From a virus: 11,684 bases of DNA. The stretch's first letter is position 1; every line of letters begins with the position of its first letter. The stretch is taken from UHGV virus genome UHGV-1583584, one strand, 5' to 3'. Below the pieces are notes generated by a model. The model did not search any database, had not been told where the DNA came from, and saw nothing but the letters and a program-made list of their open reading frames with translations. The translations under genes were made by a program, and so were the position numbers. Positions 1 through 11,684 of this stretch are shown here, one piece after another.

Positions 1-148
1 CAAAGAACCTTGCAGAGGCGTTCGAGCATTATAACGAATGGCATCCGCATAGTGCACTGGGTTATCGCTCGCCACGGGAATATCTACGGCAGCAAGCCAG
101 TAATGGGTTAAGTGATAACAGGTGTCTGGAAATATAGGGGCAAATCCA
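1..148 (+). mobile_element. IS2 insertion sequence, right end (partial; element continues left of the window)
   Basis: The + strand frame starting at base 3 encodes a transposase C-terminus, and the sequence up to about 148 ends in GGGGCAAATCCA, which I recall as the IS2 terminal sequence. Immediately after, the minus-strand integrase reading frame loses lambda Int similarity. Confidence 0.75.
3..137 (+). CDS. insD: IS3-family (IS2) transposase OrfB/InsD, C-terminal 44 codons (5-prime end outside window)
   Basis: Translation of 3..134 gives [44 protein letters not shown], stop TAG at 135-137. This matches my memory of the IS2 InsD C-terminus ([15 protein letters not shown]...[11 protein letters not shown]). 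Confidence 0.75.
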
Positions 149-6759: not shown

Positions 6760-7036
6760 AAAAACTCCTGCCCGTAAGCTGGGCTGCTGAACATATAGAG
6801 ACTTCTGCGCGTATTCAGGCGGTGGATGGCCGCCGGTTGTCATAACTAAGTCGCCTCGTTGAAGCGACTGAGGTATGAAGTGTTGAGTTGATTTCAGCTG
6901 GTCACACCGACGTTCACGCGTCCGCTTCACCCCTCGCACTCCCCGAAGCCTGCTGAAATTCAAACTGCGGATCTAAGCGGTCATCGCAACGGTGAAACAG
7001 GTGGTTACCGTATCGTTGTGTCGTTGCGATGAATTT

Positions 7037-7110
7037 ATTTAAAACTGTAGTTGTTTTATCGTCAACAACAAAAGTTGTTTTGTCGGTTGTTTTAAATATA
7101 ACTGGTTGTA
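7037..7110 (-). promoter_or_regulatory. Candidate pL promoter with oL operators
   Basis: On the minus strand: -35 TTGACG (+ coords 7060-7065), 17-nt spacer, -10 TTAAAT (7037-7042). The spacer contains the 17-mer AAAACAACTACAGTTTT (7041-7057), 15 of 17 identical to AAAACAACCATAGTTTT in the pR spacer (8595-8611). Further GTTGTT/AACAAC repeats lie at 7064-7080 and 7085-7110. Confidence 0.5.
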
Positions 7111-7205
7111 TTTAGGATGGATTTATTTTGTGACTTGCATCGCATAGCGATAACTGAAGTGAGGTGTGGTGGTTTTTTGGACGGTATGAGTTATGAGGGG
7201 GAGGA

Positions 7206-7236
7206 AAAGAAAACCCGGCGCGGTTGCCGGGTATGA
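7206..7236 (-). terminator. Rho-independent terminator after the lipoprotein gene
   Basis: Minus strand immediately after the stop at 7240: CCCGGC-aaccgc-GCCGGG followed by TTTTCTTTTCC. Confidence 0.6.
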
Positions 7237-7239
7237 TTA

Positions 7240-7620
7240 TCAGTCAGCCCAACCTGATTTCGAGTTTATTTGGGTTTCTGACATTGTGTATTTCTTAATC
7301 GTGTCATCGTTAAAAAGAATAGTAAGTTCTTTTTTCGTACCGTTCGTTCCATTATGGAATAATCCATAGAATGGAATAAAAGTGGTGCCATTAACTTTTA
7401 CTTTTGCAAAGGCGTACTTCCAGATCTCGTTTCCACTGTCAGTATATGAAACAGCATCAGGAGAACCAAAGTAAGATTTAACCTCATTCTTGGTTGTTTT
7501 ACCTTCCTGAAGTTTAGACTGGACACTAATTTCAGTTTCATTTTTGAGTTGCTGGTTGCCTGAAGAAGCACACCCAGCCAATACAGATGCCATCATGGCA
7601 GCGATTAGGATTTTTCTCAT
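7240..7620 (-). CDS. Prophage-encoded lipoprotein (signal peptide with lipobox LAGC); possible BamE/SmpA-OmlA-like fold; candidate lysogenic-conversion or superinfection-exclusion factor
   Basis: The N-terminus MRKILIAAMMASVLAGC has a canonical lipobox, with Ala at +2 after the Cys (no Asp inner-membrane retention signal). The mature part has a pattern resembling BamE (GxTKxEV...GSP...WxY...LTILFxxDxIKxY), which is a motif-level impression only. The gene is AT-rich relative to its neighbours and is followed by a terminator. Confidence 0.8.
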   Translation of the reverse strand: MRKILIAAMMASVLAGCASSGNQQLKNETEISVQSKLQEGKTTKNEVKSYFGSPDAVSYTDSGNEIWKYAFAKVKVNGTTFIPFYGLFHNGTNGTKKELTILFNDDTIKKYTMSETQINSKSGWAD

Positions 7621-7849
7621 TTTATGTTTCCATTCATTATAATCAGAAACATCTTAACATAATGATTCGAAATAAAAACCGCTACGAGATAGGGGGACAT
7701 TTTGCTGACAGTAGCAACAAATCTCAGCTAACAACGAGAATATTTACTGAAATATGCAAACAGATTTGGCGTTCTTATAGAGAATTTAGTGCAATATCTA
7801 ATCCGAGTGGTATAAACCTTAACCTTCGCTCCCTTAAGTCGTAGATAAA

Positions 7850-8539
7850 TTAACCATGCTTCCTGTACGTCTGCGGCATGCTTCCAATGACCTTACCGAA
7901 TATGAACACCCGGTTCATCTCGTCTTTCTCGATCGGGTCCCACGGCGAGTAGCTCTTGTTATCAGAGATAACCAGCAGCTTATCCTTCATCATTTGAAGA
8001 CGTTTTACATGGGCAGTGTCGTCGTACAGAAACGCATAGATGCCATCACCGTCGAAAGATTTAACAGTGATATCAACGAACAGCAGGTCACCTGGTTCGA
8101 TCGTCCCTGACATGCTGTCACCTCGCACGTTAATGATGCGGATATTTTCCGCCTTCCTGCCATCGAACATGTGACGAGCATCGTCAAACGAGTACTCAAC
8201 CGAGCGTAGAACTTCTACAAACTCACGGTTGATTACACCTGGCCCGGCACTGACTTCTATATCAAGAACGTCAATTTTGAAGTATTTGGAATGGCTGACA
8301 GTTGATTGTATTGGTTGCACTGTACTGTCTGACATATTTCCAACGCCAGAAGATAACCATTCTGCGCGCACACCCAAAGCGTTCGCGATCTCCACGATTT
8401 TAGTTGTTTGGTTAGCTTTCCCTGTTTCGATTTTCTGAATAGCAGCCTGGCTAACCCCGACCAAATCCCCAAGCGCCTTTTGTGTAAGGCCTCGCGCTAA
8501 TCTGGCTTCTTTAAGTCTTTCTGAGAGTGTTGTTTTCAT
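7850..8539 (-). CDS. cI: CI-type prophage repressor (N-terminal XRE-family HTH, C-terminal LexA/S24-like autopeptidase domain)
   Basis: The N-terminus LKEARLARGLTQKALGDLVGVSQAAIQKIETGK is a typical HTH. The C-terminus contains GDSM (Ser nucleophile motif) and VKRL (Lys), with a candidate Ala-Gly cleavage site in EVSAGPG. It is transcribed divergently from the cro-like gene. The sequence differs from lambda CI, so this is a different immunity type. Confidence 0.9.
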   Translation of the reverse strand: MKTTLSERLKEARLARGLTQKALGDLVGVSQAAIQKIETGKANQTTKIVEIANALGVRAEWLSSGVGNMSDSTVQPIQSTVSHSKYFKIDVLDIEVSAGPGVINREFVEVLRSVEYSFDDARHMFDGRKAENIRIINVRGDSMSGTIEPGDLLFVDITVKSFDGDGIYAFLYDDTAHVKRLQMMKDKLLVISDNKSYSPWDPIEKDEMNRVFIFGKVIGSMPQTYRKHG

Positions 8540-8545
8540 AGATCA

Positions 8546-8616
8546 AATGTACAACCAAGGTTTTATTTCATCAAACGAAAATGGTTGTTGACTAAAAACA
8601 ACCATAGTTTTAATCT
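8546..8616 (+). promoter_or_regulatory. oR operator cluster with pR (and divergent pRM presumably within the same region)
   Basis: pR: -35 TTGACT (8588-8593), 17-nt spacer, -10 TAATCT (8611-8616), then SD GGAGG (8634-8638) and the cro-like ATG at 8644. Three related 17-bp dyad-type sites: about 8548-8564 (ACAACCAAGGTTTT), 8576-8592 (AAAATGGTTGTTGAC) and 8595-8611 (AAAACAACCATAGTTTT). Confidence 0.6.
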
Positions 8617-8643
8617 TGATTCGGATTAACCACGGAGGTTGTT

Positions 8644-8874
8644 ATGAACCCAGCAATCAAAACAGCGATCAATATCGTTGGTTCACAAAAGAAACTAGGC
8701 GATGCCTGCGAAGTTTCACAGCAGGCCGTCTATAAGTGGCTTCACAACAAAGCAAAGGTATCCCCTGAACATGTCGGCAGCATTGTTACGGCTACTGGTG
8801 GAGTTGTGAAGGCATACCAGATTCGCCCGGATCTTCCGAAGTTGTTTCCACACACCGAAAAGAACGCAGCTTAA
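8644..8874 (+). CDS. Cro-like HTH regulator of the YdaS type
   Basis: The 76-aa product, first rightward gene from pR, contains GSQKKLGDACEVSQQAVYKW...VSPEHVGSIVTATGGVV, resembling the YdaS/Cro-like family pattern as I recall it. It is not lambda Cro. Confidence 0.75.
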   Translation: MNPAIKTAINIVGSQKKLGDACEVSQQAVYKWLHNKAKVSPEHVGSIVTATGGVVKAYQIRPDLPKLFPHTEKNAA

Positions 8875-8943
8875 ATTTCCATTTCACGCTCTTTAACAAT
8901 AAGCAATCAACTTAACAGTCAATTCAAACTAAAGGAGTCAATT

Positions 8944-9483
8944 ATGCAACCACTTACATACCAACAGACTAGCGGATTTATTCCGACTGCGGTGATAAAT
9001 CGTTCTCAAACAAAACAAGCTCCAGGCCACGAAAAAATCCGTGATGCCGTCCGCGCCTGGTCGGCTGTAGATAATCAGGATGTCGTTGCCGCACTCATTG
9101 TGAATGAGTATCGGGAGCAGGGCGACGGCACCATCGATTTCCCTGATGATGTCAGCCGTGCACGCCAGAAGCTGTTCCGCTTCCTCGATAACAAATTCGA
9201 TTCTGAAAAATACCGAAATAACGTGCGTGAACTGACCCCGGCAATTCTGGCGGTACTACCGCTGGAATATCGCGGTTACCTGGTTGAGCAGGATAGCTTC
9301 ATGACTCGGTTGGCTGAAATGGAAAAGGAACTCAGTGAGGCAAAACAGGCTGTCATTCTCAACGCACCACGCCACCAGAAACTGAAGGAAATGAGTGAAG
9401 GTATTGTGTCGATGTTTCGTGTGGACCCGGATCTGGCTGGTCCATTAATGGCGATGGTGACCACCATGCTGGGGGCAATATGA
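8944..9483 (+). CDS. YdaT-like protein in the cII position (function uncertain: regulator or toxin-like)
   Basis: 179-aa ORF with SD AAGGAG 5 nt upstream. The segment LTPAILAVLPLEYRGYLVEQD resembles the YdaT family core as recalled from the Rac prophage ydaS-ydaT pair. It is not lambda CII (97 aa). Confidence 0.6.
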   Translation: MQPLTYQQTSGFIPTAVINRSQTKQAPGHEKIRDAVRAWSAVDNQDVVAALIVNEYREQGDGTIDFPDDVSRARQKLFRFLDNKFDSEKYRNNVRELTPAILAVLPLEYRGYLVEQDSFMTRLAEMEKELSEAKQAVILNAPRHQKLKEMSEGIVSMFRVDPDLAGPLMAMVTTMLGAI

Positions 9484-9569
9484 CAGGTTCAGAAATGGCG
9501 AAAGTCGGTCTGCGGGAACAGAACCGACTTTCAGGTGCAAATCGTAACACACTCATTGCGGGAGGAATT

Positions 9570-10499
9570 ATGGCAAACACTGCTGAGATATTCAATTTTC
9601 CAGTGCCGGATGCGGCACAAAAGGAGCCGCGCGTGGCAGATCTCGATGATGGTTATACGCGCATTGCAAATGAGTTGCTGGAAGCTGTGATGCTGGCCGG
9701 ATTAACACAGCACCAGCTTCTGGTCTTCCTGGCTGTCATGCGCAAAACATATGGCTTTAATAAAAAACTGGATTGGGTGAGCAACGAGCAACTTTCCGAG
9801 TTGACCGGGATATTGCCGCACAAGTGTTCTGCTGCAAAAAGCGTTCTGGTAAAGCGTGGGATTCTTATTCAGAGCGGGCGGAATATCGGCATTAATAATG
9901 TGGTCAGTGAATGGTCAACATTACCCGAATCAGGTAAGAAAAATAAAGTTTACCTGAAAGAGGTAAATTTACCTGAATCAGGTAAGAAAAGTTTACCCAA
10001 ATCAGGTAAAGGCGTTTACCCGAATCAGGTAAACACAAAAGACAAACTAACAAAAGACAATATAAAACCTTTTTCGTCCGAGAATTCTGGCGAATCCTCT
10101 GACCAACCAGAAAACGATCTTCCTGTGGAGAAACCAGATGCTGCAATTCAGAGCGGCAGCAGGTGGGGGACAGCAGAAGACCTGACCGCCGCAGAGTGGA
10201 TGTTTGACATGGTGAAGACCATCGCGCCATCAGCCAGAAAACCGAATTTTGCAGGGTGGGCTAACGATATCCGCCTGATGCGTGAACGTGACGGACGTAA
10301 CCACCGCGACATGTGCGTGCTGTTCCGCTGGGCATGCCAGGACAACTTCTGGTCCGGTAACGTGCTAAGTCCGGCCAAACTCCGCGACAAGTGGACCCAA
10401 CTCGAAATCAACCGTAACAAGCAACAGGCTGGCGTGACAGCCGGAAAATCAAAACTCGACCTGACAAACACTGACTGGATTTATGGGGTGGATTTATGA
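9570..10499 (+). CDS. O: Replication initiator O (hybrid: non-lambda N-terminal iteron-binding domain, lambda-type C-terminal P-interaction domain)
   Basis: Start assigned to the ATG at 9570 (MANTAEIFNFPVP...), preceded by GGAGG at 9561-9565, rather than the ORF-track start at 9480 that overlaps the upstream gene. The C-terminal part, about 130 aa (...WGTAEDLTAAEWMFDMVKTIAPSARKPNFAGWANDIRLMRERDGRNHRDMCVLFRWACQDNFWSGNVLSPAKLRDKWTQLEINRNKQQ...DWIYGVDL), matches lambda O as recalled. The N-terminal domain differs. Confidence 0.9.
   Translation: MANTAEIFNFPVPDAAQKEPRVADLDDGYTRIANELLEAVMLAGLTQHQLLVFLAVMRKTYGFNKKLDWVSNEQLSELTGILPHKCSAAKSVLVKRGILIQSGRNIGINNVVSEWSTLPESGKKNKVYLKEVNLPESGKKSLPKSGKGVYPNQVNTKDKLTKDNIKPFSSENSGESSDQPENDLPVEKPDAAIQSGSRWGTAEDLTAAEWMFDMVKTIAPSARKPNFAGWANDIRLMRERDGRNHRDMCVLFRWACQDNFWSGNVLSPAKLRDKWTQLEINRNKQQAGVTAGKSKLDLTNTDWIYGVDL
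9921..10032. repeat. Origin of replication iterons: five 17-bp inverted-repeat iterons, consensus TTACCCGAATCAGGTAA, inside the O gene
   Basis: Copies at 9921-9937, 9950-9966, 9969-9985, 9993-10009 and 10016-10032 (TTACCyGAAwsAGGTAA), immediately followed by an A-rich segment (10033-10080). This is the architecture of lambdoid ori. The repeats encode the repeated LPESGKK-like peptide in O. Confidence 0.8.
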
Positions 10500-11197
10500 A
10501 AAACATCGCCGCACAGATGGTTAACTTTGACCGTGAGCAGATGCGCCGGATCGCCAACAACATGCCGGAACAGTACGACGAAAAGCCGCAGGTACAGCAG
10601 GTAGCGCGGATCATCAACGGTGTGTTCAGCCAGTTACTGGCAACTTTCCCGGCGAGCCTGGCTAACCGGGACCAGAACGAACTGAACGAAATCCGCCGCC
10701 AGTGGGTTCTGGCTTTCCGGGAAAACGGGATCACCACAATGGAACAGGTTAACGCAGGAATGCGCGTAGCCCGTCGGCAGAATCGACCATTCCTGCCATC
10801 ACCCGGGCAGTTTGTCGCCTGGTGCCGGGAAGAAGCATCCGTTACCGCCGGACTGCCAAACGCCAGCGAGCTGGTTGATATGGTTTACGAGTATTGCCGG
10901 AAGCGTGGCCTGTATCCGGACGCAGAGTCTTATCCATGGAAATCAAACGCGCACTACTGGTTGGTTACCAACCTGTACCAGAACATGCGGGCCAATGCGC
11001 TGACTGACGCGGAATTACGGCGTAAAGCTGCCGATGAGCTGACCTGTATGACCGCGCGAATTAACCGTGGTGAGGCGATACCTGAACCAGTAAAACAACT
11101 TCCTGTCATGGGCGGTAGGCCTCTAAATCGTGCACAGGCTCTGGCGAAGATCGCAGAAATCAAAGCGAAGTTCGGACTGAAAGGAGCAACTGTATGA
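10496..11197 (+). CDS. P: Replication protein P (DnaB helicase loader)
   Basis: The 233-aa product MKNIAAQMVNFDREQMRRIANNMPEQYDEKPQVQQVARIINGVFSQLL... matches lambda P as recalled. Its start overlaps the O stop (ATGA). Confidence 0.95.
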   Translation: MKNIAAQMVNFDREQMRRIANNMPEQYDEKPQVQQVARIINGVFSQLLATFPASLANRDQNELNEIRRQWVLAFRENGITTMEQVNAGMRVARRQNRPFLPSPGQFVAWCREEASVTAGLPNASELVDMVYEYCRKRGLYPDAESYPWKSNAHYWLVTNLYQNMRANALTDAELRRKAADELTCMTARINRGEAIPEPVKQLPVMGGRPLNRAQALAKIAEIKAKFGLKGATV

Positions 11198-11367
11198 CGG
11201 GCAAAGAGGCAATTATTCATTATCTGGAGACGCACAAGAGCTTCTGTGCGCCGGACGTTGCTGCGACAACAGGTGTGACATTAACCAGCATAAATCAGGC
11301 TGCGGCAAAAATGGCGCGGGCAGGAATCCTGGTCATTGATGGTAAGGTCTGGCGAACGTTTGTTTAA
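11194..11367 (+). CDS. ren: Ren-like protein, short (57 aa) relative to lambda Ren (96 aa)
   Basis: Manual translation from the ATG at 11194 (overlapping the P stop): MTGKEAIIHYLETHKSFCAPDVAATTGVTLTSINQAAAKMARAGILVIDGKVWRTFV, stop TAA at 11365-11367. The N-terminal 50+ residues resemble lambda Ren as recalled; sequence diverges after about residue 54. Confidence 0.7.
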   Translation: MTGKEAIIHYLETHKSFCAPDVAATTGVTLTSINQAAAKMARAGILVIDGKVWRTFV

Positions 11368-11513
11368 CGGTTAGCTACTCAGGATGATAGGGCGGGGCAA
11401 GTGAGTATGAAGCGGATTTTCAGGAATGCCATCAGAGTTTGGAAATAAAGTGGGTTTTCTAGTGGCAAGAGACTTGATAATATTTAGTTCTTTAAATCCA
11501 AGGAGATAGGGTT

Positions 11514-11669
11514 ATGAGAAAATTTATTATAGCCTTTGTCATAAGTGCCTCGTTTACTGCAAATGCTGGTGTAGAGAAGTTAGGGTCGTGGATAACAAAG
11601 TCTGAGATAAATAAAATGACTGACCAGACTGAACCGCCCCGGGTTTCCTGGAGAGTGTTTTATCTGTGA
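11514..11669 (+). CDS. Candidate small secreted protein (51 aa) with an N-terminal signal-peptide-like segment
   Basis: ATG at 11514 preceded by AGGAGA (11501-11506). Product MRKFIIAFVISASFTANAGVEKLGSWITKSEINKMTDQTEPPRVSWRVFYL, stop TGA at 11667-11669. AT-rich context. Could be a genuine small gene or a remnant. Confidence 0.25.
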   Translation: MRKFIIAFVISASFTANAGVEKLGSWITKSEINKMTDQTEPPRVSWRVFYL

Positions 11670-11684
11670 ACTCAGGCTGCCAGA

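Follow-up and report, generated by a model that had tools for sequence, protein, structure and literature searches.

The 11,684-nt stretch of DNA analysed here (UHGV virus genome UHGV-1583584; hereafter, the window) is the early region, with the immunity and early-right part, of a lambdoid Escherichia coli prophage integrated at the lambda attachment site. Its leftward genes are, in order, a lambda-type int, xis, exo, bet, gam, kil, a lipoprotein gene and an S24-type cI; its rightward genes are a YdaS-type gene encoding 76 amino acids (aa), a YdaT-type gene encoding 179 aa, the replication genes O and P, and a shortened ren. We are concerned chiefly with the YdaS–YdaT pair, i.e. the rightward open reading frames (ORFs) at 8644–8874 and 8944–9483. 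The original prediction had placed these two first behind pR, and had read them as analogues that replace lambda Cro and CII; the ORF list reproduces the coordinates and lengths exactly, their position after a pR-like promoter (TTGACT/TAATCT, 8588–8616) holds, and the functional assignment is supported by protein family, fold, gene order and 66% identity to the CII of phage phi80.

The 76-aa protein is encoded on the plus strand from an ATG preceded by a Shine–Dalgarno (SD) sequence, GGAGG, at 8634–8638. It is the first gene from pR, divergent from cI, and begins 28 nt after the pR −10 hexamer (interval 8617–8643). The YdaS-type helix-turn-helix (HTH) proposed for it is confirmed by a match to Pfam YdaS_toxin (PF15943; 61.5 bits against a cut-off of 30, E 6.6e-17), and it additionally matches PHROG 35, transcriptional repressor (E 1.3e-27). 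It shares 30% identity with YdaS of the Rac prophage (E 2.4e-7); among solved structures, the helical Cro of prophage Xfaso1 is the best match (3bd1; E 5.5e-3), and blastp detects no similarity to lambda Cro (E 0.36). With a profile score above threshold and the first pR position across shared operators, it belongs to the YdaS/helical Cro family, and it is this phage's Cro, the name that its gene bears in the record of phage PhiR26_1. By analogy, it would act on the same three right-hand operators (OR), and on those on the left (OL), as the divergent cI. Within the gene there is also a 12-nt inverted repeat, the arms of which (TGGCTTCACAAC, 8737–8748, and GTTGTGAAGGCA, 8803–8814) are 92% complementary and 54 nt apart; a third copy of TTCACAA lies at 8682–8688, and the repeat brackets a chance-level promoter match that runs from 8810 to 8782 on the minus strand.

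The 179-aa protein (plus strand; ATG, with SD AGGAG at 8933–8937) is an unremarkable representative of the phi80-CII branch within the YdaT family, and this protein is common in E. coli. The profile search that the original prediction had proposed matches it to Pfam YdaT_toxin (PF06254; 104.5 bits against a cut-off of 21, E 4.3e-30, residues 67–154) and to PHROG 163, 'CII-like transcriptional activator' (E 1.4e-66, residues 17–179), confirming the YdaT-like assignment; PF06254 is found in all 120 homologues among those listed, and no NCBIfam model matches the protein. The core sequence from which the resemblance was first noted, LTPAILAVLPLEYRGYL, corresponds to residues 97–113. The family is a large one (714 clusters at E up to 1e-3, several of them with more than 1000 member sequences). 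Rac YdaT is 34% identical over residues 29–122 (E 5.5e-10), whereas phi80 CII is 66% identical over the full length, and the only solved relatives recognized by sequence are YdaT of prophage CP-933P (8bt1) and an E. coli O6 homologue (3c4r).

An AlphaFold (AF2) monomer model built on 31 homologues has a mean predicted local distance difference test score (pLDDT) of 76. Residues 1–27 are disordered in the model (pLDDT <50), and helices follow at 28–43, 45–58, 70–82, 88–104, 107–113 and 119–138, the first five of which form the HTH domain; two more C-terminal helices lie beyond 119–138. The predicted architecture, an all-α POU-like HTH domain followed by a long helix, is that of the YdaT fold, and in the solved homologues the counterpart of the modelled long helix mediates tetramerization. 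The top six matches in a Foldseek search of the PDB are chains of 3c4r and 8bt1 (probability 1.0, root-mean-square deviation 3.3–4.0 Å, target-normalized template-modelling score 0.64–0.69 over 117–121 columns), the next match having a probability of 0.35. In a phmmer alignment, Arg79, from the recognition helix (70–82), coincides with the recognition-helix arginine of 8bt1; the equivalent residues are R57, which is needed for binding in Rac YdaT, and R60, which is modelled as essential in CP-933P YdaT. Arg79 is invariant in the 31 homologues, and the neighbouring Trp is replaced by Phe in the 179-aa protein.

The closest characterized counterpart is the CII of phi80 (gp cII, 180 aa; NC_021190, 35671–36213), and the 66% identity to this protein includes both the N-terminal extension and the two-helix C-terminal extension. 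The phi80 gene order is the same (cI, OR, a cro-like gene, cII, the oop/M3 RNA, an O-like gene and a P-like gene). The neighbours differ: the phi80 Cro-like partner, gene 30, is barely related to the 76-aa protein (blastp E 0.022), the two cI proteins are only 24% identical, the operators differ, and an N gene and nut sites are present in phi80, with neither found in the window. The 179-aa protein is the CII equivalent, of the phi80 cII type. It is a functional analogue of lambda CII, not a member of its family: blastp yields an E value of 2.7 against lambda CII, no Phage_CII Pfam match appears at E up to 0.1, and the sole TTGC-N6-TTGC in the window is a pI site near xis. The likeness to lambda CII is one of place, as the gene is the second in the pR operon and is followed by an oop-type antisense unit and O–P. 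Lambda CII, a tetrameric HTH protein, activates a leftward promoter that extends into the 5' part of the cII coding sequence, its binding site overlapping the −35 region, and we infer that the 179-aa protein acts likewise as a tetrameric activator at the −35 region of a leftward promoter in its own gene. The proteins nevertheless differ in fold and tetramer symmetry (PMC9986795), and the YdaT-box is an inverted repeat, whereas the lambda CII target is the direct repeat TTGC-N6-TTGC.

That YdaS and YdaT proteins are the equivalents of Cro and CII is already present in the literature and in phage annotation. As recorded in a 2018 letter by Jobling, Casjens called them Cro and CII homologues in 2003, and the letter contends that ectopic expression produced the 'toxin' reading as an artefact (PMC5917428). 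Jurenas et al. state the homology of CP-933P YdaT to phi80 CII and show that it switches on a leftward promoter, PRE933P, without being toxic (PMC8630535); the solved structure of CP-933P YdaT is a tetramer, and its footprint is TTGATT-N6-AATCAA (Prolic-Kalinsek et al., PMC9986795). Rac YdaT footprints on ATGATTCATGAAAATCAA, over the ydaT start codon (Wons et al., PMC11879457), and it activates racR up to 29-fold in a box-dependent manner; the Rac and CP-933P proteins are ∼30% identical, yet cross-recognize one another's boxes (PMC11879457). Moreover, phage PhiR26_1, which is 99.9% identical to 7850–9600 and whose record gives E. coli K-12 MG1655 as host, is annotated with cI, Cro, cII and O in this region, and some 15 other phage records carry the 179-aa gene under CII-type names; the RefSeq product name is still 'toxin YdaT domain-containing protein'. 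The functional interpretation given in the original prediction is thus right but not new, and its suggestion that the locus would allow a new test of YdaT as a CII-like regulator is overtaken, since that question has been tested in CP-933P and Rac, and most of the experiments suggested have already been carried out on relatives; the box and −10 geometry described below is a modest addition.

On the other side of the switch, the divergent repressor (229 aa; 7850–8539, minus strand) combines HTH_3 (E 5.4e-13) and Peptidase_S24 (E 1.2e-18) Pfam domains and matches PHROG 4 and PHROG 6201, CI-like repressor; the PhiR26_1 record names the same gene cI. Between it and the cro-like gene, three operator repeats of the form ACAACCAnnGTTTT were recognized by a repeat finder and by direct reading: OR3 (8551–8564), OR2 (8575–8588, in reverse orientation) and OR1 (8598–8611). 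Within the OR region (8546–8616), these are interlocked with two promoters read directly from the sequence, namely, a rightward pR-like promoter (TTGACT at 8588–8593 and TAATCT at 8611–8616, 17 nt apart) and a leftward pRM-like promoter (TTGATG from 8574 to 8569 and TACATT from 8551 to 8546, also with a 17-nt spacer), the predicted start of which lies approximately at the cI ATG, giving a leaderless message. The assignment of pR and pRM follows by analogy with lambda and CP-933P (PMC8630535). A pattern search with the OR consensus found further copies at OL (7041–7054, 7065–7078, 7084–7097 and 7101–7115) and nowhere else nearby; here, a putative pL is suggested by hexamers on the minus strand, TTGACG (7065 to 7060) and TTAAAT (7042 to 7037), again 17 nt apart. 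This is the classical layout of a cI/Cro switch, at the operators of which both proteins would presumably bind.

The candidate YdaT-box, GTGATAAATCGTTCTCAA (core TGA-N10-TCA), lies at 8992–9009, within ydaT codons 17–22. It agrees with TTGATT-N6-AATCAA at eight of 12 positions, including both core triplets, TGA and TCA, and binding of the 179-aa protein at this site is suggested by the CP-933P and Rac footprints (PMC9986795, PMC11879457). We compared 17 diverged loci (52–97% protein identity), which provide 13 distinct versions of the site: all 13 have TGAT at box positions 2–5 and TC at 15–16, and 12 have A at position 17. The residues encoded across the box vary (M/V/L, I, N/K/F/Y, R/Q/E/P, S/N/A/C and Q/H/R); the third position of codon 21 is always T, though S, N, A or C is encoded, and the isoleucine codon is always the rare ATA (or ATT). 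The box falls in a stretch of the protein predicted to be disordered. A position weight matrix (PWM), built with this site included, finds it as the only match in the window above a shuffle null, no further YdaT sites (analogues of pI or paQ) emerging from the same scan.

The search for a pRE-like promoter reading antisense through the cro-like gene, which the original prediction had suggested, yields a candidate beside this box. On the minus strand, the hexamer TAGTCT (8971 to 8966) begins 20 nt past the box and could serve as the −10 element of a YdaT-dependent promoter (8959–8971), with a start at ∼8959 and a predicted transcript antisense through cro. All 17 of the diverged loci compared above carry a TAnnnT hexamer 20 nt past the box on the minus strand. 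The relationship recurs in a wider sample: past the box on the minus strand, TAnnnT stands 20 nt away in 16 of 19 loci and 21 nt away in the other three, whereas every other offset from 0 to 79 is represented by at most two of the 19, and the background frequency of TAnnnT is 0.0096 per position. The sample extends to distant members of the family (Rac, Klebsiella Kp4882-1, Stenotrophomonas BUCT708, the CP-933P-like Evi, 689R5, Pectobacterium ZF40, Citrobacter Chris1, Klebsiella Kp4865-4 and Aeromonas pAEv1818), each of which has a near-perfect box near the ydaT start with TAnnnT 20 or 21 nt away; the −10-like hexamers include TATGAT (Rac), TACAAT (Evi) and TATTAT (Chris1). The box lies anywhere from −41 to +48 with respect to the ydaT start, and the sequence of the spacer is not conserved; since the spacers are unrelated and the element shifts against the reading frame, neither coding nor translation signals can account for the fixed spacing. 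In phi80, box and TAnnnT, again 20 nt apart, occupy codons 17–22 and 8–10, respectively. The composite of box and −10 occurs once in the window, once in the 13.5-kb PhiR26_1 sequence and once in the 46-kb phi80 genome, at cII; as it is single in the window and in phi80, no analogue of lambda pI or paQ was found, and the one composite site compares with three such promoters (pRE, pI and paQ) in lambda.

If the −10 element is set at −12 to −7, the box runs from −50 to −33, its centre at −41.5 (or −42.5), which suggests the geometry of a class II activator, close to the place of lambda CII at pRE. On the conservation of this arrangement, we lean towards a class II model, box plus adjacent −10, for the 179-aa protein. 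We would extend it, with slightly less assurance, to a class II-type establishment promoter throughout the YdaT/phi80-CII family, the box being centred at about −41.5, the −10 element 20–21 nt away, and the whole lying at or inside the 5' end of ydaT. Three other candidates were considered in this region and set aside: a half-box in the cro–ydaT spacer, TTAACAATAAGCAATCAA (8893–8910; 9/12), falls short of the null score and is part of the exchangeable cassette described below; CATAAT over the ydaT start codon (8948 to 8943), as a −10 element, is not conserved in relatives; and a minus-strand TTGAxA at codons 6–8, as a −35 element, has no −10 element at a usable spacing. A sigma-70 consensus scan of 6900–9700 returned four promoter-like sites where 4.8 are expected by chance, and therefore such a scan alone cannot identify pRE.

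We hold with high confidence that YdaS and YdaT form a Cro/CII pair, a reading supported by family, fold, gene order and the close homology to phi80 CII (66%); the fuller explanation, in which ydaT also carries its own leftward promoter, we regard as probable. After infection, transcription from pR would yield Cro and then the YdaT-like protein, which would bind the inverted repeat at 8992–9009 within its own codons 17–22. Bound at about −41.5, it would recruit RNA polymerase to an otherwise weak leftward promoter (TAGTCT, start ∼8959), and the leftward transcript, antisense to the ydaT ribosome-binding site and to cro, would continue past OR into cI. The cI protein made from this transcript would then establish repression, as is the case for lambda pRE.

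Several points weigh against this explanation. Phi80 cII apart, the homologues that suggest DNA binding, activation and a role in lysogeny are only 26–34% identical to the 179-aa protein. The box fits the published consensus at only eight of 12 positions, and TAGTCT fits TATAAT at only three of six, though these are the three most important. The 19 loci are homologous, and hence are not fully independent samples; a long pRE transcript would offer cI no evident SD sequence upstream of its start; and the source prophage is damaged elsewhere, with an insertion sequence (IS) in int and a short ren. Finally, the Rac study assigns activation to another promoter, PracR4, which was predicted by BProm and lies ∼190 bp from the box (PMC11879457).

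The last point introduces the alternative that we consider unlikely, albeit the best-placed of those available: that the YdaT-like protein activates at a distance, from a promoter inside cro (e.g. TTCACA-17-AACAAT, 8810 to 8782, ∼180 bp from the box), the adjacent TAnnnT having another role, for instance as a portion of a longer binding site. The Rac paper credits its 29-fold activation to PracR4 (PMC11879457), the cro match lies at a similar distance on the minus strand, and the CP-933P footprints spread over ∼95 bp around the box. PracR4 is, however, a BProm/EcoCyc prediction, and the part of the Rac paper available describes no repeat of the activation assay with PracR4 knocked out (PMC11879457). 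The adjacent TAnnnT is likewise present on the reporter fragments used in both the Rac and the CP-933P work (for the CP-933P PRE fragment, the primer sequence indicates a start exactly at the box), and the published data are therefore compatible with either promoter. The cro match itself belongs to the chance-level set (four sites against 4.8 expected); considered as a PracR4 analogue, it was rejected as the main candidate, as it sits in the exchangeable cassette, and neither phage 4A7, which has the same ydaT, nor phi80 has a counterpart. The class II promoter proposed here is different from PracR4, ∼190 bp away. In Rac itself (NC_000913.3, ∼1420651–1420694), the hexamer TATGAT (∼1420651–1420656) stands at the 3' end of ydaS, 20 nt leftward of the footprinted box; it is not discussed in the Rac study (PMC11879457), and is a candidate for the true YdaT-activated promoter.

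It is more doubtful still that the protein is mainly a repressor or autoregulator, which would block rightward transcription or translation of ydaT–O–P from 8992–9009, and perhaps from 8616–8633. The box is within or over the 5' end of ydaT in 16 of 19 loci (upstream in the other three), Rac YdaT protects the racR–ydaS intergenic region, including PydaST (PMC11879457), the Loris group uses the term 'repressor' for YdaT (PMC9986795), and there is a weak box-like sequence, TTGATTCGGATTAACCAC, just downstream of pR. Yet this near-pR site scores 8.5, under the shuffle null mean of 11.1; expression of Rac ydaT changed little with or without the box, whereas that of racR rose steeply; and a pure roadblock does not account for a −10-like hexamer that, in all 19 loci, stands on the opposite strand at a fixed distance of 20 or 21 nt. 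A toxin–antitoxin or toxin–toxin module is very improbable: the Pfam names YdaS_toxin and YdaT_toxin, the RefSeq product name, and the toxicity and filamentation caused by ectopic Rac YdaS and YdaT (PMC5700377, PMC11879457) point that way, but the context is a lambdoid immunity region (cI, OR, cro, cII, an oop-like unit, O and P) in which the pair are the first two genes of a long pR operon running into O–P and not a type II toxin–antitoxin arrangement, the toxin–antitoxin hypothesis was tested and rejected (Christensen-Dalsgaard 2010, as cited in PMC5917428; PMC8630535), CP-933P YdaT is not toxic (PMC8630535), the toxicity of Rac YdaT is explained by off-target activation of rcsA (PMC11879457), and lambda CII is also toxic when overproduced (PMC5917428).

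The CP-933P and Rac prophage systems differ from the present locus in several respects. CP-933P YdaT and the E. coli O6 homologue share the Pfam family and fold of the 179-aa protein, and CP-933P has the same position for its ydaT gene, after a ydaS/cro-like gene, and the same box core, TGA-N10-TCA; however, the identity is only 26–27%, and the 179-aa protein has 27 extra N-terminal and ∼40 extra C-terminal residues. Additionally, the box lies here within the coding region (+49 to +66) but over the start codon in CP-933P, and the repressor is here of the S24 cI type, whereas CP-933P has PaaR2 with a toxin–antitoxin pair. Rac has the same two families in the same order beside a divergent repressor, but this is RacR, not an S24 repressor, and the replication module is different (ydaU/ydaV); Rac YdaT, which is toxic, additionally controls rcsA of the host (PMC11879457). 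If the proposed promoter is correct, it provides a concrete location for pRE in a large family of prophages of enterobacteria, Rac and the O157 prophages among them, and it calls one published promoter assignment, PracR4, into question. It would also explain how one ydaT allele can work with different cI/cro cassettes.

Such cassettes are indeed evident from the relatives. Similarity between phage 4A7 and the window covers ∼7850–8301 and resumes from 8943, with none between, and the same break pattern is seen in more than half of 80 IMG/VR loci with ydaT at least 95% identical, the right-hand break being at 8941, rather than 8943, in two of them. (These 80 near-identical loci, from a scan of viral contigs, are fit for mapping junctions, not for assessing diversity; a scan of genome contigs gave 11 loci.) Between the breaks, phage 4A7 and these IMG/VR loci differ from the window in the N-terminal domain of cI, in OR, in cro and in the spacer. 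Given the breaks at ∼8302 and 8943, the exchangeable unit is the stretch 8302–8942, comprising the cI N-terminal DNA-binding domain, OR, the cro-like gene and the cro–ydaT spacer, and a single ydaT allele is found next to two different immunity cassettes joined at 8943. The box, −10 element and start are all to the right of 8943, so the predicted promoter would travel with ydaT and could serve whichever cI/cro cassette is present. The right boundary of the cassette thus falls between cro and the predicted promoter; likewise, the right boundary of the lambda/434 cassette is between cro and pRE. To the right of this junction, ydaT, an oop-like unit and the N-terminal part of O are, judged from the aligned relatives, one block.

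The original prediction had the pair fused directly to a lambda-type O–P replication module at a clean mosaic junction. The module is as described: O has an N-terminal origin-binding domain (Pfam Phage_rep_O, E 1.6e-34, residues 51–145 of the long ORF), is 66% identical to lambda O and contains internal repeats, and it is followed by the lambda-type loader P (10496–11197, plus strand; Phage_lambda_P, E 9.4e-62). The direct fusion does not stand. An interval of 86 bp, holding an oop/M3-like promoter and a hairpin, separates the ydaT stop from the probable O start at 9570, so that ydaT and O are separated, not fused; moreover, the demonstrable recombination junctions are at ∼8302, ∼8943 and ∼10033, the last of which is inside O. 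The ORF caller and the RefSeq, PhiR26_1 and 4A7 records all start O at 9480 (a 339-aa ORF), an ATG that the ydaT stop overlaps by 4 bp. Lambda O and phi80 gp15, however, align only from residue 31 of this long ORF, an SD sequence (GGAGG, 9561–9565) precedes the ATG at 9570, and an oop-type promoter overlaps it; the true start is, therefore, probably 9570 (O, 9570–10499, plus strand, beginning MANTAEIFNF), and the annotations would be 90 nt too early. This correction, and that of the RefSeq 'toxin' name of the 179-aa protein, are of practical value for annotation.

The antisense unit itself (9484–9595, minus strand) has a promoter composed of TTGAAT (9595 to 9590) and CATAAT (9572 to 9567) with a 17-nt spacer, which scores 9/12 with TG in the promoter scan. 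Its −10 element overlaps the ATG at 9570, just as the lambda po and phi80 M3-RNA promoters overlap their O starts. The strong hairpin downstream of this promoter, at 9501–9531, has a folding energy of −24.6 kcal/mol (z −4.2), and because its U-tract is weak, termination of the oop-like unit is uncertain. Farther to the right in the window, at the position of the lambda ori iterons, O contains overlapping self-similar segments of ∼65 nt (9921–9985 against 9969–10032). DNA identity to lambda (93% over 10033–11383) starts only at 10033, within O; the repeat part is not lambda-like in sequence, and the origin specificity thus probably differs from that of lambda.

In E. coli chromosomes, the element adjoins ybhC, in the lambda attachment region. 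The ends of the window (1–143 and 11633–11684) correspond to IS2/IS3-family sequence in the best-matching genomes (some strains). The lambda-type int (ORF 108–890) is shortened to 260 aa, whereas that of strain N10 is intact at 356 aa, and the ren-like ORF (11194–11367) has just 57 aa, RefSeq describing ren as frameshifted with an internal stop in strain N10; with int interrupted by an IS and ren shortened, this copy of the prophage is damaged. A lambda pI CII-binding site, TTGCGTGTAATTGC, is intact at 1099–1112 on the minus strand, just upstream of xis (868–1086), and is the only TTGC-N6-TTGC in the window. Since a CII of the lambda type is lacking and the YdaT-type box differs from the pI site, the int promoter may have been orphaned by mosaic exchange.

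In the interval between pL and kil, no homologue of N or cIII was found. The match to Kil is limited to residues 60–135 of a 136-aa ORF, and RefSeq calls a Kil of 68 aa. The slot between cI and pL, filled by rexAB in lambda, is here taken by the lipoprotein gene (7240–7620, minus strand), with a weak BamE-domain match and a match to PHROG 3135 (unknown function); it is probably a moron expressed from the prophage, and it is followed by a G+C-rich, terminator-like hairpin with a T-run at 7213–7232. An Rfam scan of the whole window at E up to 1 identified no oop, nut, put or other family, its three matches being at chance level and located elsewhere. Immediately after pL, the leader (6760–7040, minus strand) contains a long hairpin at ∼6981–7032 (−34 kcal/mol, z −2.6), which could act in antitermination as an RNA element like the put type of HK022/HK639.

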